Positions 1 through 24,371 of a DNA stretch of 24,607 nucleotides are shown in pieces. Below the pieces are notes generated by a model. It saw only the letters and a program-made list of their open reading frames with translations, had not been told where the DNA came from and made no database searches. Source of the DNA: a virus (Duplodnaviria; Caudoviricetes); IMG/VR virus record IMGVR_UViG_3300044724_001500, positions 1 through 24,607 of that record; one strand, written 5' to 3'. The position numbers and the translations under genes are program-made. The stretch's first letter is position 1. Each line of letters opens with the position of its first letter.

Positions 1-3000
1 GTCCAAATAGACCCGTTTTGAGACTTGAATAGAGATCCAGCGCCATACTGTCTAGCGTAAATAACGCCTTCTACGTTTGGAAGAGTAGACGTGTTTACAG
101 TCTTTTCTCCCATTCTTGCAACCCAGGCTTCGTATTGATCGGTGGAAGGAGCAAGAAGAACAATAGCGTATTCTGTATTTGGTTCGAGATAAATTGGTGC
201 AGGGAATGTTACTCTTGTGGGAACATCTGCTGTTCTTGAAGTGTTAATTTGGTCTGGTTCAAGAGTTACTACAGAATCTTCATTGACGAGTTGTCTTGTT
301 GGAGTTCCCAACTCCATTGTTCTCAACTGAATCTCAAGTGGAGAAGCGGTATCTTTATTGCCCATAAAGATATCGACAGAAGTAATATATCCACCAGTAT
401 TGTCCGTTGTAAAGGACTGAGCAAGAGGATCGTAGAACTGAACAACGGTTTGTGTGATAGTTCTAATGATACCAGTCGCTCTGTAAGAGGCTTCGGCAGA
501 ACTAATCAGAAGACTACCGGGAAGAGGTTCAGCATTTGTGGAACTAGAAGACAGTTTATAAGTCTTTGTTCCAGTTGGGAATCTCAGAGCAGGAGCAGGA
601 ATGCTATTTGGATTTCTAAAGAAGAACGAACCAATAATCGTTCCATAGTTATCAGTTACAATTCTATTGTTGGTAATAGTTGCCTGAGCCTGACTCGTTC
701 TACCAACAAGTCTTCCACCAGTTACAATGTAACCAGAATATGAACCACCAGCCTGAGCAGAAAGAGCATCAATGTCAACGTTTACCAGAACAGAAGAACT
801 ATTATACGCATCAAGAGAACCCATGAGGAGAGTTCTGTCATAAGGACTTACATCATATTTTCTGGTAGGATTGTTAAAAGGTCCTTCTTTGTGGTTTTGT
901 TGTGCTACTCTAAAGGAAATAGTTCTATTTCCAGCAGCATCAAATCCATCTACAGTTTCACCAACTTGGAATGTTCCAGCTACGGGTGTAACTTCGATGA
1001 GTTTGGGAATCCAGTCAAGACCACCAACACCATCAAGGAATTGATAGTATCTTGTGAATGGTTTGAAACCAGTTGTCTTATTCTTAACGTTTCTGGATCT
1101 AATCCATGGATCAGCAACATCACTTACAGAATTGCTAACAATTGTTTGACCTCTTCGATGAGGATTTGGAACTCTAGCAAAACCGCCACTTCTAAAGATA
1201 GTTGTAACCCAACTATCAACAGCTGGTGTTAGTGAAATAGATCCAACCCACTCAATCAAGTTAAATGGGTTTACATTCTCAACTCTTGTTGCCAAAGGTT
1301 GCTCGATCCAGGTTTCTTCCTGATAAGCGAGTTGAACTTTATTTCCTCTCTTAACAACGTTAGAATCGATAAGGTCAATATTAGCACTGTAGTCAATTAG
1401 AGAATCAGCAGCAGTGCTAGCCGTTGCAACTTGAACGGGAATTGTTACCGTGGTATCTTCTACGATCAGTTGCTTCAACTCTGTATCAACAGTGATACGA
1501 GTATCCTCCATGCTGTAATCAATGAATTCCTGATTCTGGAAATCATCTGCAAAGAATCCAGACTTAAATCTAGTCAGACCTTGATCATCAACAACTTGGA
1601 AAGTAGAAGTATCCAGTTCTAACAGAGAAAGGGATGTTGTAATTTCTAAGTTTGAAAGTCTGTCATCAAGATTGCCAATATCGCGCATCGTATAACGACG
1701 ATTGTCGATAGTAGTAATTTTTACATCAGTTACATCATAAAGGTAAGGGGGATATTCAATGATAGCAATATCCATTGCCTCTTCAGAATTAAGAGGTGTC
1801 TTAGGTGTATCGCTAGGGGCTCCTTTAATGATTTGGAAATTGCCATCTTTGCCAAGGACAATTCTGTCAATTCTTCCTTGATAGTAGGAATAATCTACTA
1901 AAGAAGTTTCTCCAGACTTGGGAACAAGAGTAGTTGTATTTCCAGAAGCATTAAATGCTCTACTTGCAAACGAGAATGGAGAAGACGTTTCTACAGACCA
2001 GGATGTAACTCTAGGTCTGAAGTCAAGAGTATCAGTTAATCTAATTTCCTTGAAGGATCCAGTCTGTCTATCGAAATACTCAGATGTTGGAATATACTCT
2101 TTGTATTGAGAAGCAGCATACGAACCAACAGTAAATACATCTCCAGTATCTACACTAGGAACTGTATAATGATCGTATACGATAACCAGTCTCTTGGAAG
2201 CAGAAGGCTTTCCTGTATTTCTTACGATTCTAGAGAAATCGCAGAATTGTTTTCTGTGTCCAGTGTCAAGAGTATAATTGGAAGTTACGTCAACATAAGA
2301 TCCAAGATTTACTTCTTGAATTGTTCCAACAATGTTAGATTCTAAGAACTTAACATCCTCATTTACTTGGAACTTGGAGGAGTTCAGATATACAAATTCA
2401 ATTGTAGTAGAGTTGGATCTTGTTACAATTTGTGCAAGTGCTCCACTGGTTCCACCAAGAATGTATTCCCCAAGGACAGAATTGACATCTAAACCAAGAC
2501 CAGTTTGGAATACCAAATTGTCAAAGGAAGGATCATTAGATCCATTGGATTGATAGACCGCAACAAGATTGATTGCATCGGGGACGTTGAAAGAGATTTC
2601 TTTATCTTCAACTCTCAGACCGTAGAACTTATTATAGGTGAGACCGTTATTTACTCCAGTAGAGATTCCTGAACTGGCAAGATTGGAAAGTCTTACATAA
2701 CGCTTAGCACTTCTTGTAAAGTTCTTAACTTTATTCTTAATTCCTCTCTTCTTAAGAGTAGCAGTTACAACGATATTGCTTTGTGAACCAGTAAGACCAG
2801 AAATGTTCAGAGTCGTTGCATCATTAGTCAATGAGAATTGTCCAGCCGTTAAGTCGGCAGTGTTTCCACCAGAGTATGAAACTACGAATCTATCGGGATC
2901 ATAAGTTTCAAAGAAAGCACTGGTGATTCCAGATGCAGATGCATCAATGGAAAGGAGTCCACTTCCATCAGTGGATTCACCAGTGAACTGATGAACAATG

Positions 3001-6703: not shown

Positions 6704-9700
6704 TTAGTTGGATACTTGTTTTTTGAGAGCACCAGAGTTTCTTAATCCAAACCCTCTTCTTTGGACGATTGGGTATGTAGATAGTCCAGCACTTGTGGTG
6801 TAGGAGGAAACTGCGAAAGCAACAGATGTTGACTCTCTAGAACCTTGACCAATTCTTCCCCAAGAGAAGCGGCCAACAGGTACGTTTAAGGTTCCTGTAG
6901 TGGTAAGACCAGTTGTATCTGTTGTGCTGAGAATGTTGCAAGTAATGACACCGACGTTGGAGTTTCTGTAAATTCCAGCAACTTTGTAAACAGCATCTGC
7001 AAATGTTGTACCGATACCGACTGTATCAGTATCTAGGACATCAACTGCAGTGATTCCAGATCCAACTGTTGTATCATAAACATAAATTGGATATCCAACA
7101 ATCAGAGAATCCAATTCAGCAGTGGATACCAAGGAATTTGTGTAATCTGTTTGGAACTCGATAGCAACAGTTGCTCCTCCAAGTCCACTCACCGTAGTAA
7201 TTCCGGTAATAACGCCAACATAACCAATAATAACGTCTGCACTATTAAGTACATCTTTCTTCACTGTGTTATCTGGTACAAGAACTTGTGGGGGAACCGT
7301 ATATCCACCACCAGCATTGTAGATGTCAACACTGGTGATAGAACCACCACTAATAATTCCTCTAGCAACAGCTGTTGTTCCAACACCAATGATTCCATAC
7401 TTAGCATTATCGACTCTGGGGGGAGCAGCAATACCAAGTGCTACAGAGGTTCCAGCATATCCAGAACCACCGCTAACAATATCAAATGTCAATGTACCAT
7501 CACCAGCAACCAAAGCAGTAATAGAAGCGCCAACATTTTCTGTCGGATCGATGATGATCAGATCAGTGGAAACAGTTGTTCCTGCAGGAGCTCCATCAGC
7601 ATATTCTTCATATTGGAAGAATCTTGCGTTATCAACAAATATATCTGTTGCTCCTTCCGACAAATCTCCAATGAGTCTTGCTGTTGGATAAACAAGTCCC
7701 TCAAGAGAATCTCTAGTCTTGTAAATGATCTCTGTGTTTACGATCTTATCGGCTTTTTGCTTTCTCCAGTCAAGAGGTCTGAATACAGTCTCATCTATTC
7801 CCTGATTGATGTAGATATTTGTGGTAATCTTATCTGCAGAGGCAATTTCTTGTACTAATCTAGAATCCTGTGTTACAGTTCCATCATTTTGACCAAGTTT
7901 TCTGAGAGTTACAGTATCTCCAGCCTTAATTGTTTCAGACTGTGATGTCTGTGCGCTATCAGTTCCAGCAGTTCCTCTATAGAAGAAGATTTCAATATCA
8001 GATTCTGGACTAGGAGCCTGGGTAAAGGCAAAACTTGTACCACCATCAAACTCATACGCAACGCCAGGAACTTGAATTACTCCATCAACAAAGATGAGTA
8101 GAACATTGGCAAGATCAATTGCTGCAGAAGATGCAATTTCTGGATCTTTTTGGAAACTCAGTAATTGAGCATTCTGATAAAGTGGGAATCTTCTTCTAGT
8201 TCCATTTTGGAGATCCTTGATAGAATCAATATAATCAATTTGACCGAATTGCCATGCACTGAAACTATCAGTGTATACAGACTCTACAGTCAATTCAAAC
8301 TCTGTGAAGGAAGAACCAGCACCGATTGCACTAACAAGTCCAACAGGTCTGAATACATCACCAATTCTAAATCCATAACCAGGATTATTAAGAGTAAATC
8401 CATTAACAAAGTGATATTCATCATCAACTGTAGTTGTTCCTGCACCAACCTCAAGAGAAATCACACATCCAAATCCAGTATCGGTTGTAGAACCAATTCC
8501 GAGTCTAGATACACCTTCAATAATCATGTTGGAATAAGTTGGATCGGGAATGATCACTGCAGGCTGATTATATCCAACTCCAGGATTGTCAATACTAAGA
8601 GATAACGTTCCTCCAGCACCGACTGTCGCACTAATTACAGCACCATAACCAGTTGTTCCGCCAACTCCAGTTCCAAGATCTGTAATTGCTACAGATACTG
8701 GACCTCTGTAACCAGAACCATTGTTCAGAGAAACATTGTGCTCATAGATTGTTCCAGAACCAACATAGTCGTGACCTATAGTGCTAATTCCAATATCAAC
8801 CGAGAAGATAGTTGTTGATCCAACACCCACAACTTCAAAGACATGACCTCTTGTTCCATCTGGGAAGATGGTTGTTGTTACACCAGCGTGAGCCGCAGCA
8901 CATTCAAATTCAAGTCCAATCATGTAGACTTGCTGACCAGTTCCCGTAAGTCCATGGGCAGAAGTTGTAGTAACTTCCATAACGCCCGTGTTGTTATTAT
9001 AAGATGCTGTACTAATAGAGAGTGCAGTTCTACCAAGTGTCGTTCCAAATCCAACAAGGGATTCGATTGTTCCACCGACGCCAGTGATTGCTCTGTATTG
9101 AGCACCAACTAGAGGAGCAACTCCAGTTCCACCAGTGCTTCCGAGAGAAACGATAATTCCACCTCTGGGAATTTCATTAGTGTTGACATCTGTCTCAGAA
9201 ACATATGGAGATCCATCTACAAGTCTTACTCCATTGAATACTGCACTGGTGACACCAGATACTGTTGATTCGAGGGTGTAAGATTTTCCTGTATTGTTGA
9301 GAGTTGTGGGTGCTTGGAAAATTCCATTCAAGAATAGAACACTGCCACCAGTTTCAAATCCAACGGGATTATCATCATCAGTTCTAAGTGTAAATGTTCT
9401 TGCCAGACCAGTGAATTGGTTGGAAACATCAACGAACAGAGCATTATTTGTATAGTTTTGTCTCAGGTATACTCTACCACCAAATGTCGAGTTTGCTGGC
9501 GAAAGATTGAACTCATTGAATTGTTCTTCTGAACCAGTTCCAGCGGGAGCATTTGTAAAGTGAATACTATTTCTTACAATGTTGTAAGATCCTCTATAGA
9601 TCTTTGCAGTATCTCCATCTGCCTTAGCGGAAGCCGCAGAACCAACAGCACCTCTTAGAACATTGACTACGTTAAATGTGCCAATTCCAGAAATGTCTCC

Positions 9701-12700
9701 AGAAGTTGTTCCAACACCAACATTATTGATGCTCATGTATTCTGCGCCAACCTTTAGAAGATCTCCAGGCTGTATAGAACTAATTCCGCTTATCGCAAAC
9801 GAAGTTGTGGCAGAACTTACGGATTCTCTTAACTCAAACGATAGATCGGCAAAGGCAATAGGCGCTTGATTAATTCCATCAAGAGAGATGAGAGATTTCT
9901 CAAGTTTCTTCGTTGTATCAAGAACGTGGGCATTTCCAGATCCAATCGAAGTGTAGGTCATGCCAATGCCAGCAAGAGCAAAATCTTTCTTGGTGGCCAA
10001 CTTGAATGTATCTTCTGTCAGTTTAATTGCATAAACTGTGGAAGGAATTACATCGGTAGTAATACCAGATCTAAATGTTTGTCTGATAGTTGTCGCAGCA
10101 CCAGCGGAAGAAATTGTGACAGATGGTGCTAAGGCAGTAGAATAGTATGCACTTCCTACTCCAATTGGAACTGTGTTAGCAACTGTAATCGAATTAATTC
10201 CAATTGCAGTAATTGTTCCAAATCCAGTATAGTCTGTGTTAGAAACGATTGTCTCGTTAAGTGCAAATATTGTAGTATTTCCAACTCCAGTGAGGACGTT
10301 AGTTCCGTCACTATTAGCAACGAAGAACTTGGCACTAGAACCGATGCTTACAATTGTTGCACTAGCTGGAACTCCAGGTCCAATAATCTCCTGAGAAACC
10401 TCCATTCCACCAGTTGTTGTTAAACCAGTGATGGTTGTAAATCCAATGATGAGATCACCAACTCCATCTCCACCACCAGCAAGAGTGGATCCAATGGAAA
10501 GAGAGACAGAAGATACACCAACAACGGTGCTTTCTGGAATATAGTTTAATTCCTGACCACTATTGAAGAAGTGGTTCTTAATCGTAAATACTCCGGTAGA
10601 AGTGTTGAGAGTGGAGACTTTGGCAGGATCAAAAACTTTTGCATAAATTGGATAACCATTACTGGTAAGTTCAAAGTTGAGTTGATCTCCTCTATTGAAG
10701 AAAGATTCGGAATACTCTTCAATCGCTCTTCCGTAAGTGATATTTGGAATAGTGTCTGCATTGGAATCTTGATCTCTATAGAATACCTCGTGGTATCCCG
10801 TGATTGTAGCCACACCCTGATGAGCATCGGGATAGAAGACTACTTGGAATTCAGATCCACTAAACTCCGTACCAAATGTTCCAAGTCCAACAGAATCACC
10901 AATTGTTAACTGTGGGTATTCAATAATTTGTGCAGAATTTCTATTCTTATCTGCAGAAATGATTAGTTGAGAAGTATTGGAACTATCTCCAATAGAAACT
11001 CTTACAATAGACTTTACTGCAAGATCATTGTCTGTTGAGAATCCAACAGCAGTAACAGCATATCCAGCTCCAGTGATGGTATCGGATGTTCCGCTGCTCT
11101 GATATCTTGCACTTCTTTCTGTTCCAGTATTTTGAATATCAAGTTTAAACGATTGTGTAGAAATACCCTCACTAACATCATTTAAACCAACAATTCTTAC
11201 CCTAGCAATAATTTCTTCAGAACCATTGTTAGTGTAGTCTAACTTAAGTCTTCCACTATCAATATATGATGTAAATGAACCAATAAAGGCAGTTGATATG
11301 CCACCCTCAGTGTATCCAGTATCAAATCCAAATTCAGCCAGATATGTGTCTGTTCCATTGTGATCAACAACTACTTCGTGGTAGTTTCCGTATTGATCAG
11401 ATGGTCTAGTAATTGCAACGTGCGCTGTAAAGGCGTCTACAGAGGCAGCAAGAGCGTTAAACAGAGTTACAGCAGAACTTATACCAACAGATGTTGTAAC
11501 GCCCGTTACAGAGGCAATACCGATCGCCAGAGTTCCAACTCCACCAACATTTGAATCAAATAATTGGCGTACAACCTTAAAGTTGTAGTTAACTCCTTCT
11601 GCAACTGGTGTGGCCGAAATATCGATAACACCAACATCAGATACATCAGCGGAGAAAGTTACAACTTCTTCATCGGTGCTTCTAACATCAGATTTCTGAA
11701 GTGTATATACTCCCTCTTCAGTATTCAGTACGATGAGTTCTGTAAATTGATACTCGAAGAGATTGTTAACATCCTTAGCAAGAATAAGAATTCTCTGGAA
11801 AGGAATATTAACTGGATATGATACAATTTTCTGAGACGTTCTTTGGTTTAGTTCTTTGCTGGAGAACTGAGTAGAGATATCATCAATAAGAAGAACCCTA
11901 TTCGTTAAGCACTTGATGAAGGAGGACAACTTCTTATTTTGCATCTTAATGGCAGGAGATACGCCACTAACTACGTCAATATCGGCCGCAAAGTCAAATG
12001 TATTGATTTGATCTGCTCTACCTTCAAAAACATAATCAAGTCTAATAGAAGTTCCAAGGATTGAAGTATTGATACCGATAGTTGCAGCCGCAGAAACTGG
12101 TGACTTGATCTCCATATCAGAGAAGTTCTTCATTCCACTGGAGTGGAGAAGACGATTCATTGGTCCAACCAGAGTGTTCCACTCAAGAGGAGATTGAACC
12201 GTGTATGATAAGTTCTGATAATAGTTGTTATCTGGGAGAACGGATAGATCACTGTTGGTAAATCCAATCTGATCAGACCATCCATAAGATTGCTCTACAT
12301 CGAAAGAAACACGGAAAGTGCTTTCATAATTCTCAAGGATGAGTATGGTAGCAATGAATCCAGTGGAAACTCCTTTAACTCTATCGCCAATTTTTAACTC
12401 ATATGATCCTTTAACTTTAAGGATATCACCCTGAGATCTGACGACTACCAGATCTGTATCATTAAATCCGTTTCCAACATCTACTTGTACTTTTTCATTT
12501 ACAAGGAATTTTTCTCTCTCAAGAGTAACTTCAAAAGTTGGATAGTCTTCTTGTTTTACTAAAGATGCAGTGTTATTTGTGGTAGTTACAGCAACCCCGA
12601 CATCTTGAGTCGCAATTCCTACCAAGGAATATGTAACTGTTACTGGGTTAATTGCAGCATTAACGTTCGTAACTTCAAAGAATCTATATCCATGATCTTT

Positions 12701-15700
12701 GGAGTTATGTCCATCATAATCCCCAGAGAAGTACTGATTGATACCATCAACAAAGATCTTATCTCCAATGGCTACTGGCGCAGTAGTAAAACCAAGTACA
12801 GGAGTTTGAATCGTTACGGTAACAATTCCTGCAGGAACACTATCAACAGCAGTAATAACAATTCCGTTACTATTGGAAGTTGTGTAAAGTGTATGTGCTA
12901 CTCCAGCAAGACCCGTTGGTTGTTTCAGAACCTGAATAGAGTCAATGGAGTTCTCATTCATAACAGCATTGTAAGAACCATCTCCAGATGGTTTTCCAGT
13001 AGTGCTATCAACAAGAACCAGTTGTGGAGGATTAGTAAAGTTCTTACCACCAGTTCTTACGATAATGTTACCGTCAGAAACAGTGTAGTTATTGGAAACT
13101 TGAGACCATGAAGGAATAAGGGCAGCTGCCGTTAATGTTTTGTCGCTTGGATATTCAAAACCAGCATTTACAATTCTTGTGCTATTGACTCTACCAATAG
13201 TTTCTGAAGATGCTTCAAGGATAGCATTGATACCATTGGAAGTAGTTCCTACACCAACAAAGTCTGGTCTGGAATCAAAACCAAATCCAGGAGAGACAAT
13301 CTTAACCTTCTCGATACCACCATTGGAAGAACGAGACTTGGTTGTATATCTAAGTTCAGCACAATCTTTTTGAATATAACGTGTAGTTTCTGGTTGATCT
13401 ACAAGTGCTACTGTGAACGTTGTAGATCCAATTCCAGTTACTTTGAAAGCACCGTTATACTTGCTATTGCTGTAACTGATCTCAGAATAAGAGTTTACCT
13501 CAGTATCAGAAGTAGATAAGTATCCGCTCTTCTCTAAGTTATAGAACAACTTAGAAGGCCATGCAGAACTAAATCCAACTGTCGTTATGCCAGTAGAACC
13601 AATAACTCCAGTTTCCTGAATATCAAATGCAGAACTACTTCCGATAGAGATTACTGGGTTGTTAAATTCTTTATCATAGAAGAACTTAAGTTTATAACCT
13701 GTGAGAGTTGAATCTGTGAGATTAAAAACTAAGTTTCTATTTCTGATTACAGGAATCTGTGGGTTGATACGACCAATTGTATGAGTTGCGCCAATTCCAG
13801 TGATATCGACTAATACAGGTGGGAAAGAATCAAGGTCAACTTTAGTTTTTGCAAGACTGAATGTATTTTCGTCAATAAGGTAGACGAAGTAAACTCCGTT
13901 TGACAGACCTTGTGCTGTTTCTACTCCCTCATATACAACTTTGTCCCCATTTAAAAGACCATGAGATGCAATGGTTATTCTATTTGTCGCTGTATTGATT
14001 CCAGTGGAGTTAAATCCAATGCTGTTAACAACAACACTATCAACTAATCTGTTATAGGAAAGAGAGACAGAAGATGCAGCTCCAATACCAAAGTTTCCTT
14101 TTGGTTTTACAAAGAAAGATACAACATCATTAGTTTCTAAAAGATGTGTCGATGCAGTTGCAACAGTTGTTTCGATCTTACGAACAGTTCCTGTTACAGC
14201 AGAGAATTCGGATACAAGATTGTAATCATTACTGTTTTGAGCGTTTTCTAAGAAGAATAACTGCTCACCAGAAAGAGATGTCTTAAGACCAATTAAATCT
14301 TTACCAACATTAACGACATATACAGTTTGTGCAACTCCAGCGGCAGATGGTAAATATTGCGTATCGCCATAACCAGCCCTGACAACAAATGGTTGTCCAG
14401 TTGAAGGTGTTGTCAAAACAACACTTTGATTTGCTACAAATGGGTGATCTTGGATGAAGATTGTTTGTGCTGGAACATCTCTCTGAGAAGTTACACCAGC
14501 CTGGGTGTAGGAAAGTGTTGCACTAATTCCAGCAGTTGTGGCAATACCGACAGTTTCAGATGCATTGAAGAAAATTGACTTCTGAGTCTGGGACTCAAAA
14601 TCATCAGTTTCTAAGTTGATTGTAAATGTATTCGTCAGGAACGATACTGCAACACCAGTGGTAGAAATTCCACCACCAGATCTTTCTACTCTCAGAAGAT
14701 TCTGTACTGGAAGTTTATTTAAGACTTTGAACAGTTCTGCACCAATAAGAACACTAGATCCAACACTAACAAAGGATGGTATGGAGGAGAGTCTAATATC
14801 AACAACATCTCCAGCACTACCAGCATTGATCTGTTCAGTTAATGCTCCAGTCGCACTGGTAACTCCTACAACTTGTTTTCCAGAAAGTCCTCTTACAAAG
14901 GTGCTAAGTCCAGAAACAATAATAGTGTCACCATTTCTAAGATCATGATAAGTTCCAATGGTTCCAGTTACAACTTGATTGCTTGTCTTTTCAAATACAA
15001 TTCCACTATAATCTCTATAGTTTGTATTGAGTTCTACAATGCTCTTTCCACGAATCTCAGATACAACGGCATCAAGACCTTCACCACCACTGGTGGATTC
15101 GTCAAAATACAGAGGCTCATTGACAACATAACGATCTCCGGGAGATAGGACCTTAATATTCTCAACTGTTCCAGAAGATACTGATTCAATAATTGCTTTT
15201 TGAGTCGCTAATTCATATGACTCTAAAATGTAATCATTGTCAGCTTTTGGTTCTCCAAGAAGATATGGATATGTGTTTCTGCTATATTCTCCAGATTCAA
15301 AATCAAAATTACTCTGATTGATCGATTCTCTACCGTAGAGATTTTCTACTACGGGAACAGTTCTGTAAGATCTACCTACAAAGTATGGATATTGTGCTTT
15401 TAAATCACCGGTGGTAGGATCAATTTCGGATGTTGCAAAATAAGCATAGACACCATTAGGATAGTCAACTGTTTTACAGAATCTACCATTATGTGCGTCT
15501 AGTTGACCAGATGCATTGAATTCGTAGTCTTCAACAAAAAATCCTTCAGCGAATCCATTGGGGCGATTTTGAACTAAACCAGTGTTTAGAACATAACCAG
15601 GAGACAATCTAACAATACCAGAAGAAGAATCTTCTGGATCGGAATATCCATATGAACCGTAAATTGGATTTCCATCATAAGCCCACCCAATCAAAGGTGA

Positions 15701-18700
15701 GTGTACATTTGTATCCGTGTCAAAAAATGCACTTCTTAAAGTGTCATTGTATCCGAGAATTGAGTACTCAAGTCCTTTATTTGCCTCATTGCTGAATAAG
15801 AACTCACCACCATACTCTTCAAATCTCTTAGTCTTGTTAATTGTAAGCTTTCTTACGGACGTATTGACTACAAGTCCACTTCCGACTGTAGTTATTTTAA
15901 TGCTTGTGCTTATTGGATCGTACCCAATACCAGTGCTTTGAATAATAACTTTGGTAATAGTACCACCACTAACAATCGCTCTGAGTTTTGCTCCAGATCC
16001 AGATGTAGAAATTACACTCAAATCTGGTGCTGACTTATAGTTTCTACCACCACTTAAGATCTGAACGGAGATGATTCTTCCGTTAGAAATAATTGGGTTC
16101 AGTTGAGCCTCAGTACCATTAACAACAGTTACCAGAGGTTTCTTCTGGAAATCTACAATTTTTGATCCATAGTCAGTTCCTTCTTCATAGAGGAATAGTC
16201 TTTTAATGGAACCACGAATCGAAGGAGTTGCTGTAATTACACCAACTGTATTTGCATATGCAACATTGATGGATACGGTTGCTGTTGGGTAGTTAAACTC
16301 TTGATATCCAGAACCAGTACTATTGAAATCAACTGGAATAGATCTGTTGTAGTTGTCTTTAATCGTTCCACCAACACCAGCACCGGATAGTTGGAAACTA
16401 TTAGTTGAAGAATTTAGAATGTAGTACTGATTACTAGTATTCAGACCACTAATCGCAGATCCTGTTGTCGAAGCGTAAGAAACAATCTCACCATCAACAA
16501 ACCCGTGATTTTTGAACGAAATCGTATTTCTTGATGTTGATACTCCAGAAGCCTTTACTCTGAGTCTTCTGCTTGCAAATCCTTCACCGCCATTGATGAC
16601 TCTAACACCAGTGAGGGTTCTCTTTTGATCAAATGTTCTGAATTTATGAATGCCACTGTTTCCAATAGTGGTAAATCCGATGGTATTAATACCAGCATTC
16701 AGATCGTTGACACTTTGATACAGATATACTGATTTGTTATTAATTTTAGAGATAAAGTAAGAACCACCGCTGTTAAGCGTTAATCCAGTATCTTCGTTCC
16801 CTCCACCAAAGGTTCCAATTCCAAGAGCAGAGTTGCCATTTCTATCATATACAACCTGCTGACCAGTGACAAAGTTGTGCTCATCTAAGAATGTGATTGT
16901 TTCTGTAGATGTTCCGATTCCACCACCAAATACAGAATCGGCCGCATTGAATGCAACTTCTCTGTATCTATTTTCGACAATTGGTTCTAACTGTGAGTTC
17001 TTACCGTTTGCTCCACTCACCGAAATCGAGAATACTTCAGTGATATCAAAGTTTTGTGGGTCTACGGAAACCTCAGTAATACTTCCAACAACAACAGGTT
17101 CAACTAACGCAGTTGTTCCAGAAGATACACTAGGACTACCAACAATAACGGTTGGTGGATTCAATACGTCAAAGTTGCTGCCGCCATTTAAGACAGAAAC
17201 ATTGCTTACAGGTCCGTAGTAAATAAATTCTTCCGATCTTGGGTTGAGAATCTCAACACCATTACGCAGGATACCAACAGGACCAGGAGATGTTAAAGTT
17301 TTATCTCCAGATTGAAGATCTTGAGATAATGGGAACTTTTTGAGGATAGCCTGTGGTTCTATCAGTTTATCAGACTGAGATGCTAATGTGAAGACGTGAG
17401 TTCCAGATCCAGAGGGAAGAGGTGCAAATTTTACATAATCTTGTGCATCGATGAAAGATCTAGCAACGCACAGTTTTACCTTTTTAGGATCTGGTTGTAC
17501 TTCTACGAAATAACGGCCTTCTTTAATTCCAGTAAATCCTTCAACCATTCCAAGAGTGGTAGAAGCAGTTCCAACTCTATAAATTACCTCATCACCTGTA
17601 ATAAAGGGGACTTCGGTATCAAATGCTAAAACAGAATACAATCCATCAGAATCAGCATCCTGAACACCACCAGATGCTGTAGAAGCCTCTGTTAATGTCT
17701 TGGAAATGATGGGTGTTGTAATCTCATATGAAGGTAAAGAGTTACTTGCAACAAATCCGTATAGATCATCATTCGAGATATAAGTATTTTGAATGTCAGA
17801 TACAATAACCTCTTCGCCATTCTTGATGATATTGTTTGAGGATGTTGCTTTTTTGACTAATCTACGAATATCGTACTTTGTATTTGGATTAAGTGAAGAA
17901 ACAATAGAACCAGATAATGTGCAGTCACTAGTTGCTGTAACCGAATTATCAATAGTGATCTGAGCCGTTCCAAGAACTGTACTGGAACCACGAGCAAGAA
18001 TCTGAACAGTATCTCCAGTTCTAATCTGAACTCTATCGAGTTCCAATGCTAATTTAAATGCAGATCCAGTAAAACTTTGAATCTGAATCCTGTTAGTTGG
18101 GTTATATTCCCAAGAATTGAAGAAGGTCTCAACAAAAGTCTTCGATTCTGGATTTCTAATTTTTTTACCAACAAACTTGACGTTGATTTCTTCCTCAACA
18201 TCTGCATTGTTGTATCCAGTTGGAATATTGAATTGATTCAATACACCAGTAAGTCTAAGTTCTACTTTATTGGTAGTCCCTTGCTCATATCCATAAACGA
18301 CAAGATTCTCTCGGATATCGGAAGCATCGGAGATACTCTCAGTGATCCCAGAAACGCCTAGAAACTGGTTTACAGTCTTGTCGGTATATGTGATAGTATT
18401 ATTGCCTACAATCGCCTCTCCGGCGGCAGGGAACCCGATTGTGGAGTCAACTGTAATAGTATCTGCACTGGTTCCATAAGTGCCAATTACTTTGGACTTA
18501 CCAGGCTGTTTGTAGTTACCAAAAAACCCAGATGGAGGGCTATCATAACCAAAGAACAGAGAGATCTTGTAATATCTCTTATTCTGGATTGTAAATGCTT
18601 CAACCTCTGAAATAGGAGCACTCGCAGATCCAACTCCAGTTAAAAGATTTTCATCTTGGAATAAAGTTTGACCAACTAACTGTTCTGGATCTCCAGAAAT

Positions 18701-19447
18701 TAGATCAGTAATTAAAGTCAGTCTATTTCTATAGTTTGCTGTAGATGGTTTACTGAGAAGTTGCTCAAGGTCTACAACGTTAGCACTTACATTGTAAAGT
18801 GCTCGCATGAGGATTCTAAAGGAATCGGACGTTCCTTTTGCTTCATAGAATCCACGAAGAGATTTGATAAAATTATTAACATCCAGAGAACTTGTAAAAT
18901 CTTGATCCTCCAGTCCAGGAGCAAAAGAGATTTTGAGTTTTCTGAAGAACTCTTTGAGGAAAAGAGTACTTAAGTTTTGGGCAACACTACCAGAACTATG
19001 AGATGCAGCCGAAGAAGTTGCAAATACTAAACTTTCCGAATCTGTTCCGGATCTATAGGAAGTAATTCCACTAAATCCACGAACGCATCCAGTAAAACTA
19101 TTTGTAGTTACACCAGTGTAAGTAATGATCTCATTATTAATCTTGATGAGACCATATTCATTTGGGAAACCCTTTGTAGTGTCAACGTAAATCGTTGTGT
19201 CAGACGCCAAGACACTTTCAGTTACACCTACTCTTCCATTGAGTGCTTCTGGTGTAAGATTGTCCAGTTTGATGTACTGGTCAATGTTTTCAAGCAGATC
19301 GACAGGACCGCTTTGAAATTGTTGAGACTGATAGTACTGTTTTAAGAAATCAACAAATAATGGAGACTCCGAAACGACATACTCAGGAAGTTGTCCCTCG
19401 ATCAGCTGGCTGATCTTGACCCGTTGATCAATTGCGGTCTCAATCAT
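6704..19447 (-). CDS. gp7: Giant baseplate wedge initiator (cyanophage gp7-like), 4247 aa, multi-repeat beta-rich protein with a YHYH-like domain
   Basis: N-terminus QLPEYVVSESPLFVDFLKQYY...FIKSLRGFYEAKGTSDSFRILMRALY; internal DNNYYQNLSYTVQSPLEW...LLHSSGMKNFSD; C-terminal GRFSWG. Lies between gp6 and gp8 as one uninterrupted 12.7-kb ORF. Confidence 0.85.
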   Translation of the reverse strand: MIETAIDQRVKISQLIEGQLPEYVVSESPLFVDFLKQYYQSQQFQSGPVDLLENIDQYIKLDNLTPEALNGRVGVTESVLASDTTIYVDTTKGFPNEYGLIKINNEIITYTGVTTNSFTGCVRGFSGITSYRSGTDSESLVFATSSAASHSSGSVAQNLSTLFLKEFFRKLKISFAPGLEDQDFTSSLDVNNFIKSLRGFYEAKGTSDSFRILMRALYNVSANVVDLEQLLSKPSTANYRNRLTLITDLISGDPEQLVGQTLFQDENLLTGVGSASAPISEVEAFTIQNKRYYKISLFFGYDSPPSGFFGNYKQPGKSKVIGTYGTSADTITVDSTIGFPAAGEAIVGNNTITYTDKTVNQFLGVSGITESISDASDIRENLVVYGYEQGTTNKVELRLTGVLNQFNIPTGYNNADVEEEINVKFVGKKIRNPESKTFVETFFNSWEYNPTNRIQIQSFTGSAFKLALELDRVQIRTGDTVQILARGSSTVLGTAQITIDNSVTATSDCTLSGSIVSSLNPNTKYDIRRLVKKATSSNNIIKNGEEVIVSDIQNTYISNDDLYGFVASNSLPSYEITTPIISKTLTEASTASGGVQDADSDGLYSVLAFDTEVPFITGDEVIYRVGTASTTLGMVEGFTGIKEGRYFVEVQPDPKKVKLCVARSFIDAQDYVKFAPLPSGSGTHVFTLASQSDKLIEPQAILKKFPLSQDLQSGDKTLTSPGPVGILRNGVEILNPRSEEFIYYGPVSNVSVLNGGSNFDVLNPPTVIVGSPSVSSGTTALVEPVVVGSITEVSVDPQNFDITEVFSISVSGANGKNSQLEPIVENRYREVAFNAADSVFGGGIGTSTETITFLDEHNFVTGQQVVYDRNGNSALGIGTFGGGNEDTGLTLNSGGSYFISKINNKSVYLYQSVNDLNAGINTIGFTTIGNSGIHKFRTFDQKRTLTGVRVINGGEGFASRRLRVKASGVSTSRNTISFKNHGFVDGEIVSYASTTGSAISGLNTSNQYYILNSSTNSFQLSGAGVGGTIKDNYNRSIPVDFNSTGSGYQEFNYPTATVSINVAYANTVGVITATPSIRGSIKRLFLYEEGTDYGSKIVDFQKKPLVTVVNGTEAQLNPIISNGRIISVQILSGGRNYKSAPDLSVISTSGSGAKLRAIVSGGTITKVIIQSTGIGYDPISTSIKITTVGSGLVVNTSVRKLTINKTKRFEEYGGEFLFSNEANKGLEYSILGYNDTLRSAFFDTDTNVHSPLIGWAYDGNPIYGSYGYSDPEDSSSGIVRLSPGYVLNTGLVQNRPNGFAEGFFVEDYEFNASGQLDAHNGRFCKTVDYPNGVYAYFATSEIDPTTGDLKAQYPYFVGRSYRTVPVVENLYGRESINQSNFDFESGEYSRNTYPYLLGEPKADNDYILESYELATQKAIIESVSSGTVENIKVLSPGDRYVVNEPLYFDESTSGGEGLDAVVSEIRGKSIVELNTNYRDYSGIVFEKTSNQVVTGTIGTYHDLRNGDTIIVSGLSTFVRGLSGKQVVGVTSATGALTEQINAGSAGDVVDIRLSSIPSFVSVGSSVLIGAELFKVLNKLPVQNLLRVERSGGGISTTGVAVSFLTNTFTINLETDDFESQTQKSIFFNASETVGIATTAGISATLSYTQAGVTSQRDVPAQTIFIQDHPFVANQSVVLTTPSTGQPFVVRAGYGDTQYLPSAAGVAQTVYVVNVGKDLIGLKTSLSGEQLFFLENAQNSNDYNLVSEFSAVTGTVRKIETTVATASTHLLETNDVVSFFVKPKGNFGIGAASSVSLSYNRLVDSVVVNSIGFNSTGINTATNRITIASHGLLNGDKVVYEGVETAQGLSNGVYFVYLIDENTFSLAKTKVDLDSFPPVLVDITGIGATHTIGRINPQIPVIRNRNLVFNLTDSTLTGYKLKFFYDKEFNNPVISIGSSSAFDIQETGVIGSTGITTVGFSSAWPSKLFYNLEKSGYLSTSDTEVNSYSEISYSNSKYNGAFKVTGIGSTTFTVALVDQPETTRYIQKDCAELRYTTKSRSSNGGIEKVKIVSPGFGFDSRPDFVGVGTTSNGINAILEASSETIGRVNSTRIVNAGFEYPSDKTLTAAALIPSWSQVSNNYTVSDGNIIVRTGGKNFTNPPQLVLVDSTTGKPSGDGSYNAVMNENSIDSIQVLKQPTGLAGVAHTLYTTSNSNGIVITAVDSVPAGIVTVTIQTPVLGFTTAPVAIGDKIFVDGINQYFSGDYDGHNSKDHGYRFFEVTNVNAAINPVTVTYSLVGIATQDVGVAVTTTNNTASLVKQEDYPTFEVTLEREKFLVNEKVQVDVGNGFNDTDLVVVRSQGDILKVKGSYELKIGDRVKGVSTGFIATILILENYESTFRVSFDVEQSYGWSDQIGFTNSDLSVLPDNNYYQNLSYTVQSPLEWNTLVGPMNRLLHSSGMKNFSDMEIKSPVSAAATIGINTSILGTSIRLDYVFEGRADQINTFDFAADIDVVSGVSPAIKMQNKKLSSFIKCLTNRVLLIDDISTQFSSKELNQRTSQKIVSYPVNIPFQRILILAKDVNNLFEYQFTELIVLNTEEGVYTLQKSDVRSTDEEVVTFSADVSDVGVIDISATPVAEGVNYNFKVVRQLFDSNVGGVGTLAIGIASVTGVTTSVGISSAVTLFNALAASVDAFTAHVAITRPSDQYGNYHEVVVDHNGTDTYLAEFGFDTGYTEGGISTAFIGSFTSYIDSGRLKLDYTNNGSEEIIARVRIVGLNDVSEGISTQSFKLDIQNTGTERSARYQSSGTSDTITGAGYAVTAVGFSTDNDLAVKSIVRVSIGDSSNTSQLIISADKNRNSAQIIEYPQLTIGDSVGLGTFGTEFSGSEFQVVFYPDAHQGVATITGYHEVFYRDQDSNADTIPNITYGRAIEEYSESFFNRGDQLNFELTSNGYPIYAKVFDPAKVSTLNTSTGVFTIKNHFFNSGQELNYIPESTVVGVSSVSLSIGSTLAGGGDGVGDLIIGFTTITGLTTTGGMEVSQEIIGPGVPASATIVSIGSSAKFFVANSDGTNVLTGVGNTTIFALNETIVSNTDYTGFGTITAIGINSITVANTVPIGVGSAYYSTALAPSVTISSAGAATTIRQTFRSGITTDVIPSTVYAIKLTEDTFKLATKKDFALAGIGMTYTSIGSGNAHVLDTTKKLEKSLISLDGINQAPIAFADLSFELRESVSSATTSFAISGISSIQPGDLLKVGAEYMSINNVGVGTTSGDISGIGTFNVVNVLRGAVGSAASAKADGDTAKIYRGSYNIVRNSIHFTNAPAGTGSEEQFNEFNLSPANSTFGGRVYLRQNYTNNALFVDVSNQFTGLARTFTLRTDDDNPVGFETGGSVLFLNGIFQAPTTLNNTGKSYTLESTVSGVTSAVFNGVRLVDGSPYVSETDVNTNEIPRGGIIVSLGSTGGTGVAPLVGAQYRAITGVGGTIESLVGFGTTLGRTALSISTASYNNNTGVMEVTTTSAHGLTGTGQQVYMIGLEFECAAAHAGVTTTIFPDGTRGHVFEVVGVGSTTIFSVDIGISTIGHDYVGSGTIYEHNVSLNNGSGYRGPVSVAITDLGTGVGGTTGYGAVISATVGAGGTLSLSIDNPGVGYNQPAVIIPDPTYSNMIIEGVSRLGIGSTTDTGFGCVISLEVGAGTTTVDDEYHFVNGFTLNNPGYGFRIGDVFRPVGLVSAIGAGSSFTEFELTVESVYTDSFSAWQFGQIDYIDSIKDLQNGTRRRFPLYQNAQLLSFQKDPEIASSAAIDLANVLLIFVDGVIQVPGVAYEFDGGTSFAFTQAPSPESDIEIFFYRGTAGTDSAQTSQSETIKAGDTVTLRKLGQNDGTVTQDSRLVQEIASADKITTNIYINQGIDETVFRPLDWRKQKADKIVNTEIIYKTRDSLEGLVYPTARLIGDLSEGATDIFVDNARFFQYEEYADGAPAGTTVSTDLIIIDPTENVGASITALVAGDGTLTFDIVSGGSGYAGTSVALGIAAPPRVDNAKYGIIGVGTTAVARGIISGGSITSVDIYNAGGGYTVPPQVLVPDNTVKKDVLNSADVIIGYVGVITGITTVSGLGGATVAIEFQTDYTNSLVSTAELDSLIVGYPIYVYDTTVGSGITAVDVLDTDTVGIGTTFADAVYKVAGIYRNSNVGVITCNILSTTDTTGLTTTGTLNVPVGRFSWGRIGQGSRESTSVAFAVSSYTTSAGLSTYPIVQRRGFGLRNSGALKKQVSN

Positions 19448-21359: not shown

Positions 21360-21761
21360 TTATCGGGTCGCTTCTAATATGAAGGTAAATTCTTGTGCTG
21401 TTACTGCTTCACCAACGATATCAAAGGAAACCGTTACCTCAAATTCGTTTTGATCGGGTCTTGGATCTACAGTTACGTTAACATTATCCACTCTAGGCTC
21501 GTATGCGTAGATTACTTCGTAAATTTGAGTCTCAATTGCAGATGCAGTACCGTAATCTACGAAGTCAAATAGTAATCCTGTGACATCTGTACCCAAATTT
21601 GGTTGGAAGAACCTCTCAGTTGGAATGGTTTGAACCAAATTTCTCACTGCACGACGAATCGCGTTCTCATTTTTAAGAACTTGGAGGTCCTTGGTCACAG
21701 GATGTGGCTTGAAGGACAAGTTTATATCTTTGAATGACTTACTTATCCTATTTGTAGCCAT
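21360..21761 (-). CDS. gp25: Baseplate wedge subunit / tail sheath initiator (T4 gp25-like), 133 aa
   Basis: FKDINLSFKPHPVTKD, AIRRAVRNLVQT...ERFFQPNLG and YEPRV are GPW/gp25 family motifs; directly upstream of gp6. Confidence 0.95.
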   Translation of the reverse strand: MATNRISKSFKDINLSFKPHPVTKDLQVLKNENAIRRAVRNLVQTIPTERFFQPNLGTDVTGLLFDFVDYGTASAIETQIYEVIYAYEPRVDNVNVTVDPRPDQNEFEVTVSFDIVGEAVTAQEFTFILEATR

Positions 21762-21782: not shown

Positions 21783-21790
21783 TATTTATA
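21783..21790 (-). promoter_or_regulatory. T4-type late promoter TATAAATA for gp25-gp6
   Basis: Exact consensus 22 nt upstream of the gp25 ATG; overlaps the TAA stop of the 75-aa ORF. Confidence 0.85.
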
Positions 21791-22013
21791 GTGGTTTTCC
21801 GTAACTGGGTTCTGTTCCATACTCCCAGTCGTCATAATCTTCGTCATTTCTGATCTCTTCATGCAGTAAAGTCTGCTTTTTGAGGTCATGTTTATGATCG
21901 CCAACTACTTCTCTGAGCAGTTTATCGCATTTTGGGTCTGTGATGAGGTATTTTGTGCCAAATTCTTCACTCATCATGTCCGAATTGTGGTCGGGAACTG
22001 GATGATTAGACAT
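21786..22013 (-). CDS. Small acidic hypothetical protein, 75 aa
   Basis: Strong Shine-Dalgarno GGAGG 6 nt upstream of the ATG, own late promoter, co-oriented with neighbours; acidic/aromatic C-terminus DEDYDDWEYG. Confidence 0.8.
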   Translation of the reverse strand: MSNHPVPDHNSDMMSEEFGTKYLITDPKCDKLLREVVGDHKHDLKKQTLLHEEIRNDEDYDDWEYGTEPSYGKPL

Positions 22014-22067
22014 TTTAGCCCTCCGTAAAGTTCTTTCAGAGAACTTTTAGAGGGGTTGCTATCCCTT
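22014..22067 (-). promoter_or_regulatory. Structured 5' leader that can sequester the Shine-Dalgarno (candidate cis-regulatory RNA)
   Basis: RNA AAGGGAUAGCAACCCCUCUAAAAGUUCUCUGAAAGAACUUUACGGAGGGCUAAA-AUG: perfect 8-bp stem AAAGUUCU/AGAACUUU, extended by CCCUCU pairing with GGAGGG. Confidence 0.55.
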
Positions 22068-22072
22068 ATTGC

Positions 22073-22080
22073 TATTTATT
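22073..22080 (-). promoter_or_regulatory. Late promoter AATAAATA upstream of the 75-aa ORF
   Basis: Plus strand tatttatt at 22073-22080, overlapping the stop of the 198-aa ORF and immediately upstream of the structured leader. Confidence 0.7.
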
Positions 22081-22672
22081 TTACCCAGAAACCTTTTCGT
22101 AGGTAATCTTTTGATTCTATGAAGCGATATCCATCAAAATTTACTGGTCTATCTCCGTTCCAAACTGGAATTGCTTCGCTATTACCATATCTAAAATCTG
22201 GATTTTGGCGAAAATGTACCTCAATTAGTTTCCCACCTATAAATTCGCAGTTAATCCAGTCATAATGTCCATGTAATTGGTCCAAGATTTCTGGAAATTT
22301 TATTTTTCTATCAATTTTTTCCCATTTTTTCCATCGGTAGAGATCACTTTCTAGATCACGATCACCGATTACTGTCAATTTTTGTTCTTTGTTGTGAAAA
22401 TCTACACTAATGTGGTCTCCTTCAAAGATTTCACACCAAAATTCACTTGGATGATATGACTCTGTGTACTTGTAAATGTATTCTATCCGAGCAAAACGGC
22501 CCATTCCAAGTAAATTCATGCTCGGCCGAACAACATAAAAGTCGGGTTTGGGAACTGTGGTGCCAATAGGACCACAAGTATAACCCAATACCCGACTTAG
22601 CAGTAACTTATTATAAACCCAGAGGTCATGTGGATGAATATAATTCCATTCTTGATCTCCCTCTAGGTACAT
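22076..22672 (-). CDS. Hypothetical protein, probable minimal ATP-grasp fold enzyme, 198 aa
   Basis: Ordered motifs YVVRP..NLLGMG (hhhKP plus Gly loop), FWCEIFEGDHISVD (hhQE.h.G..h.hD) and INCEFIGGKLIEVHFR (hhEhN.R-like metal-binding strand) follow the ATP-grasp pattern. The fold is inferred by eye. Confidence 0.7.
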   Translation of the reverse strand: MYLEGDQEWNYIHPHDLWVYNKLLLSRVLGYTCGPIGTTVPKPDFYVVRPSMNLLGMGRFARIEYIYKYTESYHPSEFWCEIFEGDHISVDFHNKEQKLTVIGDRDLESDLYRWKKWEKIDRKIKFPEILDQLHGHYDWINCEFIGGKLIEVHFRQNPDFRYGNSEAIPVWNGDRPVNFDGYRFIESKDYLRKGFWVK

Positions 22673-23046: not shown

Positions 23047-23802
23047 TTAAATAACGCGGGGTTTTTCGTGTCCAACACGGATACGAGGATCGCACCAGAT
23101 TTCAAAGCCTGCTTCTTTGGCATCGAGACAGAACGACACGTCTTCGCCGCACATGTCTTGAACAGCACCAGACTCAAAGACTTGCATCTTAGGAGCGAAC
23201 CAGGGATACTTCATCTCAGGATGCTCAAAGACACCGTGCTTGATCAGCAACCATCCGAAACCTGCATAGTCCACGGTGAAGGGTTTGTGACGGTTCTTCA
23301 TCGTCTCCAAGGTCTCGTGATTCATCACACCACCATTCTTGGCGAATGCTTCTTCATCCAACCAATGAGCCACCGAGGAAGTCATGCCATCTTCGGTACA
23401 ATACCAACCAGATGCAATGTCTTGATCCATCAGGACAAGTTGCCAGAACTTCTCTGTGGTAAAGATAATATCCGAGTCAATCCAGAGTTGATAATCATAC
23501 TTCAGTTTGCCGTCCCAGGGAATCTGATCGGGACCGCGCAGCACGTTTGCACCTAAGCACTTACAACGTGCAAAGTTCACCATACTGCTATAATCTTGGG
23601 AGATCTGAATCTGAGCTCCGGCGTGAACAAGATCAAAGCAGAGTTGAACAAAGTTCTTCAGATATGCGTAAGAGACACCTCGACCAGGCAGGCAGAACAC
23701 AATGCTCTTACCATTGACCATCTCTCGTGCTTTATTATAGTCCCATTCAGACTCTGCTTTCTTGATGGGAGTTTTCGCTTTTACTGTAAATCCTTTCGCC
23801 AT
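23047..23802 (-). CDS. Glycosyltransferase-like protein, GT-A fold (GT2-like), 251 aa
   Basis: N-terminal beta strand IVFCLPG, VNFARCK, DxD motif in YQLWIDSDI, AGFGWLLIK..VFE, GEDVSFC, and C-terminal WCDPRIRVGHEK. Confidence 0.8.
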   Translation of the reverse strand: MAKGFTVKAKTPIKKAESEWDYNKAREMVNGKSIVFCLPGRGVSYAYLKNFVQLCFDLVHAGAQIQISQDYSSMVNFARCKCLGANVLRGPDQIPWDGKLKYDYQLWIDSDIIFTTEKFWQLVLMDQDIASGWYCTEDGMTSSVAHWLDEEAFAKNGGVMNHETLETMKNRHKPFTVDYAGFGWLLIKHGVFEHPEMKYPWFAPKMQVFESGAVQDMCGEDVSFCLDAKEAGFEIWCDPRIRVGHEKPRVI

Positions 23803-24057: not shown

Positions 24058-24087
24058 ATTATATCAGAAACTCTCGAAATTTTCCAA
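24058..24087 (-). promoter_or_regulatory. Sigma70-like promoter with extended -10 (TTGGAA-N18-TATAAT; TGn-TATAAT)
   Basis: Minus strand TTGGAAAATTTCGAGAGTTTCTGATATAAT; the TGA stop of the AbrB-like gene supplies the TGn motif; 25 nt upstream of the ATG at 24033. Confidence 0.6.
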
Positions 24088-24249
24088 GTCTGTCACGACA
24101 AGTTCATTGCCGTCCTCAGTAATTACTACTTCTGTCCCATCGTACCATCCGAGTTCATTGACAGTACTCTCAGGCAATTTAATCACATAACTTCCATCTA
24201 TCGGATCGACCTCTACGACGGAAATTATGGGTCCGGAATTTTTTTGCAT
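24064..24249 (-). CDS. AbrB/MazE/SpoVT-family DNA-binding protein, ~61 aa
   Basis: GSYVIKLPESTVNELGWYDGTEVVITEDGNELVVT fits the swapped-hairpin pattern G...h.hP..h...Lgh..GD.h.h......hhh. The ATG at 24249 (MQKNSG...) is preferred over the GTG at 24300 because a TATAAT (24280-24275) and a purine-rich GGGAAAAGGGA lie between them. Confidence 0.75.
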   Translation of the reverse strand: MQKNSGPIISVVEVDPIDGSYVIKLPESTVNELGWYDGTEVVITEDGNELVVTDLENFESF

Positions 24250-24371
24250 TCGTGGATCCCTTTTCCCATTTTCGATTATATATGTCTTTCGATAACTCAC
24301 TCGATCTGGGTCGTTTATAGATTAGGGATGTTAGCTGTTTTTAAACAACGCCCGCCGACATATAACAACAT

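Follow-up and report, generated by a model that had tools for sequence, protein, structure and literature searches.

What does the short leader ahead of a small peptide gene do in a T4-like cyanophage, and does it govern the baseplate genes that follow? The leader lies in a 24,607-nt stretch of T4-like cyanophage DNA (IMG/VR record IMGVR_UViG_3300044724_001500, hereafter the window), where it shares the minus strand with the 75-amino-acid (aa) peptide gene that it precedes (phrog_1414, 21786..22013; PHROG match with an E-value of 6e-12), the baseplate gene gp25 and an upstream 198-aa open reading frame (ORF). An original prediction had described here a switch in which a stem AGGG/CCCU (ON) competes with the pairing of CCCUCU to the Shine-Dalgarno (SD) sequence GGAGGG (OFF), and had placed it at the entry to the baseplate operon. 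The leader sequence is as it was quoted, on the minus strand, and it is indeed a structured, conserved 5' leader that belongs to no Rfam family and has alternative folds that exclude each other; in one of them the SD would be hidden. What had been overlooked is a pseudoknot pairing in the leader, as well as a separate, exact TATAAATA at 21790-21783 ahead of gp25. On comparative grounds, the leader is very probably built around a conserved 28-nt H-type pseudoknot; that it acts on the phrog_1414 gene as a translational ON switch with two states, the pseudoknot being stabilised by a binder, is a reading that we hold about as readily as we doubt it. It appears to be an abundant leader RNA of cyanophages that has gone undescribed; comparison strongly supports the pseudoknot, prediction gives good support to the switch, and hundreds of cyanobacterial viruses keep the element ahead of one small gene.

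The predicted leader pseudoknot and its companion gene

The element occupies 22039-22066 on the minus strand, the strand of the other leader features described below, and would consist of two stems. Stem 1, recognised by covariation, joins AGGG (22063..22066) to CCCU (22051..22054); together with 22050-22049, the latter doubles as the anti-SD of the OFF hairpin predicted for this genome. Between the two strands lies the 8-nt loop AUAGCAAC (22055..22062), in which A is loop 1, UAG and AAC are the 5' strand of stem 2 and C22058 is a variable bulge. The AG and AAC of this loop are complementary to GUUCU, with one bulged base between them, and GUUCU(C) (22039..22044) is the switch strand, either the 3' strand of stem 2 or the 5' arm of a rival hairpin. 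It is preceded by loop 3, CUAAAA (22045..22050). The family core can be summarised as a 4-bp stem 1 closing the loop AUAG-N-AAC, then six linker nucleotides, the last four of them AAAA, and finally GUUCU; the part 3' of it is variable.

We examined this core in 246 distinct leaders pooled from protein- and pattern-selected loci, a pool that is biased by the patterns. Pairs 1 and 3 of stem 1 are G-C throughout. Pair 2, at which pairing was required by the filter, is GC in 188 leaders, AU in 50, UA in 6 and CG in 2; pair 4, which was not filtered, is AU in 111, CG in 80, GC in 39, UA in 4, GU in 1 and mismatched in 10. On a gp25 tree of 226 loci, the two sides of pair 4 take 36 and 37 changes, and jointly only 40 are needed. 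The AGGG/CCCU stem therefore came through the covariation check proposed for it, as it covaries strongly among relatives. For the whole structure, 96.1% of the cells are paired in 74 distinct gap-free cores (those left after setting aside 4 of the 78 cores of equal length and the 16 that are longer), with 53 two-sided changes; none of 500 shuffles scored as high, and slid controls were 22-54% paired.

Compensation extends to stem 2. S-CRM01 carries a double one, from AG/CU to GA/UC, and other lineages have G-U or G-C as the end pair, the G-C set having been selected by its pattern. In S-CAM7 and in one further locus (L873) the bulge is deleted and six perfect pairs remain. Searching exhaustively for leaders with a different fourth tail base, we obtained 96 matches, 10 of them with a stem 1 of at least 4 bp: in the 8 that end in U (6 distinct), the inserted U faces an A or G bulge, and the other 2 have no peptide gene; purine bulges overall occur in 48 of the 246 leaders. 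In a divergent clade, nine loci have the tail GUUGCUG, with the inserted G opposite U or C every time, and longer linkers accompany longer first stems. A scan for a changed fifth tail base returned 91 matches, 76 of them family-like; all have an A-C end pair, and none A-A or A-G. The loop thus appears to pair with the 3' strand through compensating changes, as in an H-type pseudoknot, though its end pair is often A-C.

The bulged base is C in 168 leaders, A in 31, U in 29, G in 17 and absent in 1. The common form of stem 2 has a predicted energy of -4.3 kcal/mol, as compared with -8.1 without the bulge and -11.2 with the inserted G, so that removing the bulge would add about 4 kcal/mol. Since this cost is nevertheless borne in 245 of the 246 leaders, we infer that the bulge tunes the pseudoknot to be marginal. 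Loop 3 has a fixed length in 222 of the 246, and its last four A are invariant in the 74-row alignment.

The element is closely tied to one gene. In loci chosen by protein alone, the core lies upstream of the phrog_1414 gene in 73 of 80 viral loci; of the other seven, one is cut by a contig end and six encode N-terminally shorter peptides. Of 80 metagenome loci selected with a divergent alignment, 70 have it as well, and pattern matches with a closed stem 1 nearly all precede a phrog_1414-type peptide gene. The 14-mer GGGATAGCAACCCC is estimated to occur in ~1900 viral stretches, and the element as a whole in ~3500 stretches of IMG/VR. Judged from these comparisons, the conservation of the leader is far beyond chance. 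Cultured carriers are Syn9, S-CRM01, S-SRM01, S-WAM2, S-CAM7, P-RSM1 and S-CBWM1; among records picked via gp25, 2 of 14 have the element. Each of the whole phage genomes searched for extra copies holds one strong copy, with other model matches at an E-value of 0.05 or worse, and a single strong copy per genome implies that there is no regulon. In two loci without the pseudoknot (L896 and L905), a different short GC-rich hairpin lies between the late box and the start codon.

The module is not confined to the T4-like setting. In S-CBWM1, which is outside Kyanoviridae, the RNA and the peptide gene lie between terL and phoH and are followed by a terminator-like hairpin, and a divergent metagenome clade has the module in the same place. 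RNA and peptide thus form a module independent of the baseplate. The S-CBWM1 record gave no match to RegA or gp32, both of which were matched in Syn9 and S-PM2. Six loci with the order terL-pseudoknot-peptide-phoH (L925, which is S-CBWM1 at 2299-2877, L874, L882, L889, L902 and L913) represent a freshwater or estuarine lineage that is not T4-like, with a longer stem 2 and no clear SD. In bacterial and archaeal genomes we found 66 pattern matches, and stem 1 reaches at least 4 bp in 16 of them. Ten of the 16 lie ahead of the peptide gene and 1 more is a cut copy; these 11 are presumably phage contigs in assemblies. Five bacterial loci (L788, L831, L809, L825 and L836) have stem 1 and most of the core next to no peptide gene and were treated as chance, and the matches of a loose pattern scan were mostly chance as well (family members in 6 of 120).

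The predicted rival hairpin, the ribosome-binding site and the putative late promoter

GUUCU has two predicted partners, the loop, which gives the pseudoknot, and a downstream arm, which gives a hairpin. In the window this arm is AGAACUUU (22027..22034), the 3' side of a central 8-bp hairpin in which it pairs with 22047-22040 and which is clade-specific. The minimum free energy (MFE) fold of 22067-22011 reaches -16.2 kcal/mol (z -2.5; 2 of 200 shuffles equally good); it is the OFF fold of the original prediction, in which the SD (22019..22024) is paired with 22054-22049, and the ON fold drawn with it reaches -11.4 kcal/mol. Among relatives, we computed nested folds at 25 °C for the 226 leaders with a detectable SD. 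The tail pairs downstream, with at least 3 of its 6 bases, in 224 of the 226 MFE folds. As partner of the SD or start region, 174 use just the tail, 29 just the stem-1 strand and 22 both, and 1 uses neither. The CCCUCU/GGAGGG pairing therefore stands as the MFE fold here, and it tracks the stem-1 changes in this genome's class, but it does not describe the family, in which it occurs in 51 of 226 leaders as compared with 196 for GUUCU. Nor does the ON state hold as it was drawn: the predicted alternative is rather the pseudoknot, in which the loop captures GUUCU and destroys the central 8-bp hairpin.

At least three OFF layouts recur among the leaders. The first is a short hairpin whose lower stem pairs the tail with AGGA and whose core covaries (AU in 87 and UA in 52 of 174). 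The second is the long hairpin of this genome, with stem-1 changes mirrored in the SD region, and the third is a hairpin that closes on bases at the start codon. In S-CRM01 and S-CBWM1, whose tails have changed, a rival hairpin is retained that fits the new tail. The median cost of opening the SD is 7.1 kcal/mol, as compared with 4.2 with a shuffled spacer, and the predicted unpairing of the SD is at most 0.07 at 15, 25 and 37 °C; as it would stay paired over this range, the thermometer that had been suggested is unlikely. The 3' end of the element is 20-29 nt before the AUG in 243 of the 246 leaders.

The transcript would begin just ahead of the element. A late-promoter-like box, AATAAATA (22073..22080), shares bases with the stop codon of the 198-aa ORF upstream (phrog_3577, 22076..22672), a variable neighbour. 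The box has one mismatch to TATAAATA and agrees with the late consensus NATAAATA given for S-PM2 (PMC2984593), and transcription from it would start near 22067. One-mismatch matches are not rarer in the window than expected by chance (24 observed, 34 expected), so the promoter call, which fits the consensus, rests on relatives: TAAATA ends 4-8 nt ahead of stem 1 in 107 of 242 leaders, and 131 have no box. Among leaders without a promoter box within 16 nt, the upstream ORF terminates in the element or reads through it in 89 of 122. In many carriers, five loci (L048, L058, L571, L585 and L613) among them, translation of the upstream gene runs on into the element, which then forms the 3' end of that gene with its RNA sequence unchanged; the upstream gene may also overlap the peptide start codon. 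A frameshift or readthrough role was rejected, as the element stands in no fixed frame relation to the upstream gene, the slippery sites having been checked by eye only. In metatranscriptomes, four assemblies contain short pieces over the motif, mostly from relatives; contigs give no strand, start or level, and they were not used.

These boxes also bear on two further claims of the original prediction. T4 e, soc, 49 and I-TevI have a ribosome-binding site in a hairpin beside a late promoter, but in those genes transcription from the late start leaves out the 5' arm of the hairpin (PMC3014915); here the predicted start lies upstream of the whole structure, so the timing proposed by analogy with e, soc and I-TevI does not carry over. 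As to the baseplate genes, gp25, a wedge gene (21360..21761) outside the module, is downstream of the peptide gene in 183 of 196 loci, and in 165 of the 196 a TAAATA box comes after the peptide gene; in the window, the exact TATAAATA before gp25 (21783..21790) would be a separate late promoter for the baseplate genes. Given this separate promoter and the copies of the module between terL and phoH, the leader does not gate the baseplate operon.

The proposed switch and its competitors

In the mechanism that we propose, a hairpin formed by GUUCU would by default cover the SD or the start region and keep translation OFF. In the ON state, the loop would capture GUUCU, the pseudoknot would form and the ribosome-binding site would be free. 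The bulge would keep the pseudoknot marginal, and a binder recognising the invariant core could stabilise it. What the sequences offer in favour of this is the conservation, the covariation of stem 1, the co-variation of loop and GUUCU, the single copy and the peptide linkage in two phage lineages. The switch logic overall, taken jointly over the binder model, a binder-free switch and the repressor operator treated below, we consider probable. As a trigger, a protein is a tentative proposal: it could be the peptide itself or a host protein, but not RegA or gp32, because S-CBWM1 carries the module without a match to either. A metabolite or an ion is an unlikely trigger. It is equally unlikely, though the conserved core would overlap the expression platform in a 5' leader as is general for riboswitches, that we are facing a phage-born riboswitch class, with a 28-nt pseudoknot aptamer among the smallest known, sensing a host metabolite or ion late in infection. 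If it were true, such a riboswitch would turn on a mobile small protein via at least three independently built expression platforms. In any case, identifying the trigger would hint at the role of a widespread small phage protein.

Several observations weigh against this reading. For the pseudoknot, the stem-2 end pair is A-C in 76 viral stretches, in 15 of the 74 rows and at many places on the tree; three of the six stem-2 pairs are invariant; much of the 246-leader set was found with patterns that fix core bases, beside the filter on stem-1 pair 2; and invariant junction bases with an A-rich loop are what base triples by themselves would produce (PMC11625349). For the occlusion of the SD, the opening cost falls to 2.2 kcal/mol after removal of the pseudoknot bases, a drop that is partly there by construction, and the cost is higher with the real than with the shuffled spacer in 192 of 226 leaders, a paired test whose significance is overstated because the leaders are related. 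In a rough estimate with approximate loop penalties, OFF is favoured by a median of 5-8 kcal/mol at 37 °C, and by 10-13 in this genome; coaxial stacking and triples do not enter into it, and they could make up the difference even if nothing binds. There is no clear SD in 20 of the 246 carriers. The peptide gene is found without the RNA in S-PM2, S-ShM2 and S-TIM5, besides the 7 of 80 (one truncated) and 10 of 80 loci mentioned above. Finally, the N motif of the peptide is absent in 26 and its C motif in 87 of the 246 carriers, which weakens the idea that the peptide binds its own leader.

The closest competitor keeps the same two folds but needs no binder: the leader would be a metastable or translation-coupled timer, giving a short initiation window before the OFF hairpin forms, either because the pseudoknot forms first during transcription or because it refolds behind the ribosome leaving the upstream gene. 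We regard it as possible but improbable. The coupling of IncI repZ is a precedent for a ribosome-coupled pseudoknot timer. All pseudoknot strands are transcribed before the SD, the element begins at the predicted late start in the 107 of 242 leaders with a spaced box, and in the 89 of 122 leaders described above the upstream ORF stops inside it or continues past it; moreover, the timP mRNA pairs an active conformer that contains a pseudoknot with one that hides the ribosome-binding site (PMC11228461). A weak SD would however suffice for a fixed dose limit, and a sequence-invariant core has been kept across two phage lineages while stem 1 drifts. Less probable still is a static block to a 5'-3' exonuclease (RNase J), or a 5'-end stabiliser, comparable to coremin/xrRNA_C, with incidental SD pairing. 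The outline does match, with a short hairpin, a conserved A-rich spacer, a putative pseudoknot and a variable second hairpin conserved in structure only (PMC6546385, PMC10321173, PMC10520033); Watson-Crick variants of coremin resist Xrn1 (PMC6546385, PMC10321173), and the element is at the predicted 5' end of its transcript. But neither the loop consensus YG..AD nor the CUAC spacer is present in any of the 246 leaders, and a second hairpin that survives the pseudoknot (at least 4 bp, -0.5 kcal/mol) is found in 32 of 226 and in 0 of 29 of this genome's class, weaker AU-rich cores being commoner than this threshold lets through. The second hairpin mostly overlaps the knot, the rival hairpin uses up a pseudoknot strand, a destabilising bulge is kept, and the element precedes a start codon, whereas coremin is described from the 3' untranslated regions of RNA viruses.

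The pseudoknot could also be an operator whose binding by a repressor shuts translation off, as rpsO is by S15. In favour of this, the element ends near the ribosome footprint, at the 20-29 nt before the AUG given above, and T4 gp32 binds a pseudoknot in its own leader and represses its translation (PMC3014915). The T4 gene 32 leader likewise holds a small H-type pseudoknot controlling translation initiation in a T4-like phage; its knot lies 67 nt upstream, is followed by an unstructured AU-rich tract and nucleates gp32 repression (PMC3014915), and it was said in this 2010 review that it might be the sole viral pseudoknot in translational autoregulation. In the cyanophage leader a competing hairpin replaces the tract, the gene encodes no single-stranded DNA-binding protein, and one carrier has no gp32 match; a gene 32-type operator was thus rejected, given the single copy at the peptide gene, the structured spacer and S-CBWM1. 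More generally, a repressor would have little left to do, since the SD is already hidden in the pseudoknot-free fold; S-CBWM1 matches neither gp32 nor RegA, and the genomes searched hold no second copy. We find a repressor operator very unlikely. Even less credible is the nested model of the original prediction, in which stem 1 by itself would be the ON state, in competition with CCCUCU/GGAGGG, and might act as a thermometer. Its OFF fold is the MFE here, and 51 of 226 leaders pair the SD with the stem-1 strand and show changes that match, but the invariant loop and GUUCU, with their co-variation, go unexplained, the tail only is used in 174 of 226, and the SD stays paired from 15 to 37 °C. 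To a site acting in DNA, either an operator palindrome or an antisense terminator, we give next to no credence: stem 1 is an inverted repeat and a plus-strand terminator-like match covers 22050-22067, but such matches are at chance level (2 found, 1.1 expected), the stem-2 wobbles favour a sense RNA (50 G-U cells as compared with at most 15 A-C), and matched insertions and deletions in loop and tail make no sense in duplex DNA.

Known RNAs, the peptide and neighbouring genes

Rfam 15 gave no family at its gathering threshold in the window or in 10 loci of divergent carriers; the best local matches below threshold scored 23.1, 18.9 and 15.2 bits, all far below their cut-offs. GP20-b (RF03003) has a second hairpin with a similar 8-nt loop ending in AAC and followed by UAAAA (aligned to 22045-22092), but it scores 15.2 bits where 36.2 are needed, its first hairpin is absent, and it was found in 0 of 5 phage records; it was rejected. 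preQ1-I riboswitches are close in size and H-type fold, in the AC before the 3' strand of P1, in the A-rich loop 3 and in the overlap of SD and platform (PMC11625349). Here, however, this C is predicted to pair with an invariant G, the loop starts with A in all rows instead of U, and the pseudoknot is predicted to be ON and not OFF; preQ1-I was rejected, the downstream gene being phrog_1414 or a related short peptide and no queuosine gene, without a match in Rfam. The enterobacterial timP mRNA (timPR) shares exclusive conformers, a translated pseudoknot form and a small-protein gene downstream, but its knot is formed between stem-loops that lie far apart and is the target of an antitoxin small RNA (PMC11228461), whereas the cyanophage element is a compact 28-nt H-type fold, with no antisense RNA found and a hydrophilic peptide.

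The Downstream-peptide (glutamine-II), glnA, wcaG, manA and PhotoRC-II RNAs are likewise cis-regulatory in cyanobacteria or cyanophages, and the Downstream-peptide motif also precedes short uncharacterised ORFs (PMC2864571). The element differs from them in size and fold and has no Rfam match to any, so that the original prediction was right in not assigning it to glnA, wcaG, manA or PhotoRC-II. No prior description was found: the text and tables consulted of Weinberg 2010, Weinberg 2017 and Fremin 2023 (PMC10690425) do not name the element, which may be among their unnamed candidates, and the S-CREM1 paper lists four RNAs, none at its position. According to the 2010 review, no riboswitch had been characterised from T4 (PMC3014915). 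The element thus adds an abundant uncatalogued cis-regulatory RNA to cyanophage biology, one that is present in cultured phages.

The phrog_1414 peptide is built of modules: an N motif is combined with one or the other of two C motifs. It has no Pfam or NCBIfam match, and its Atlas matches are hypothetical viral proteins. The AlphaFold model is a low-confidence two-helix structure (pTM 0.27), and the homologues in BFVD are cyanophage ones only. One of the C motifs, RPCGG-x-GGFDD-x-VERW, is also fused C-terminally to 2OG-Fe(II) oxygenases and to an unrelated protein of 202 aa (P0121-P0127), which suggests a portable short linear motif.

Elsewhere on the minus strand of the window, downstream of gp6, an ORF of 4247 aa (6704-19447) and another of at least 1699 aa (3-5099) probably encode virion structural proteins; neither has an NCBIfam match. 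Upstream of the leader lie a glycosyltransferase-like protein (23047-23802) and a small MazE/AbrB-like protein (24064-24300; Pfam E-value of 0.002, under the cut-off).
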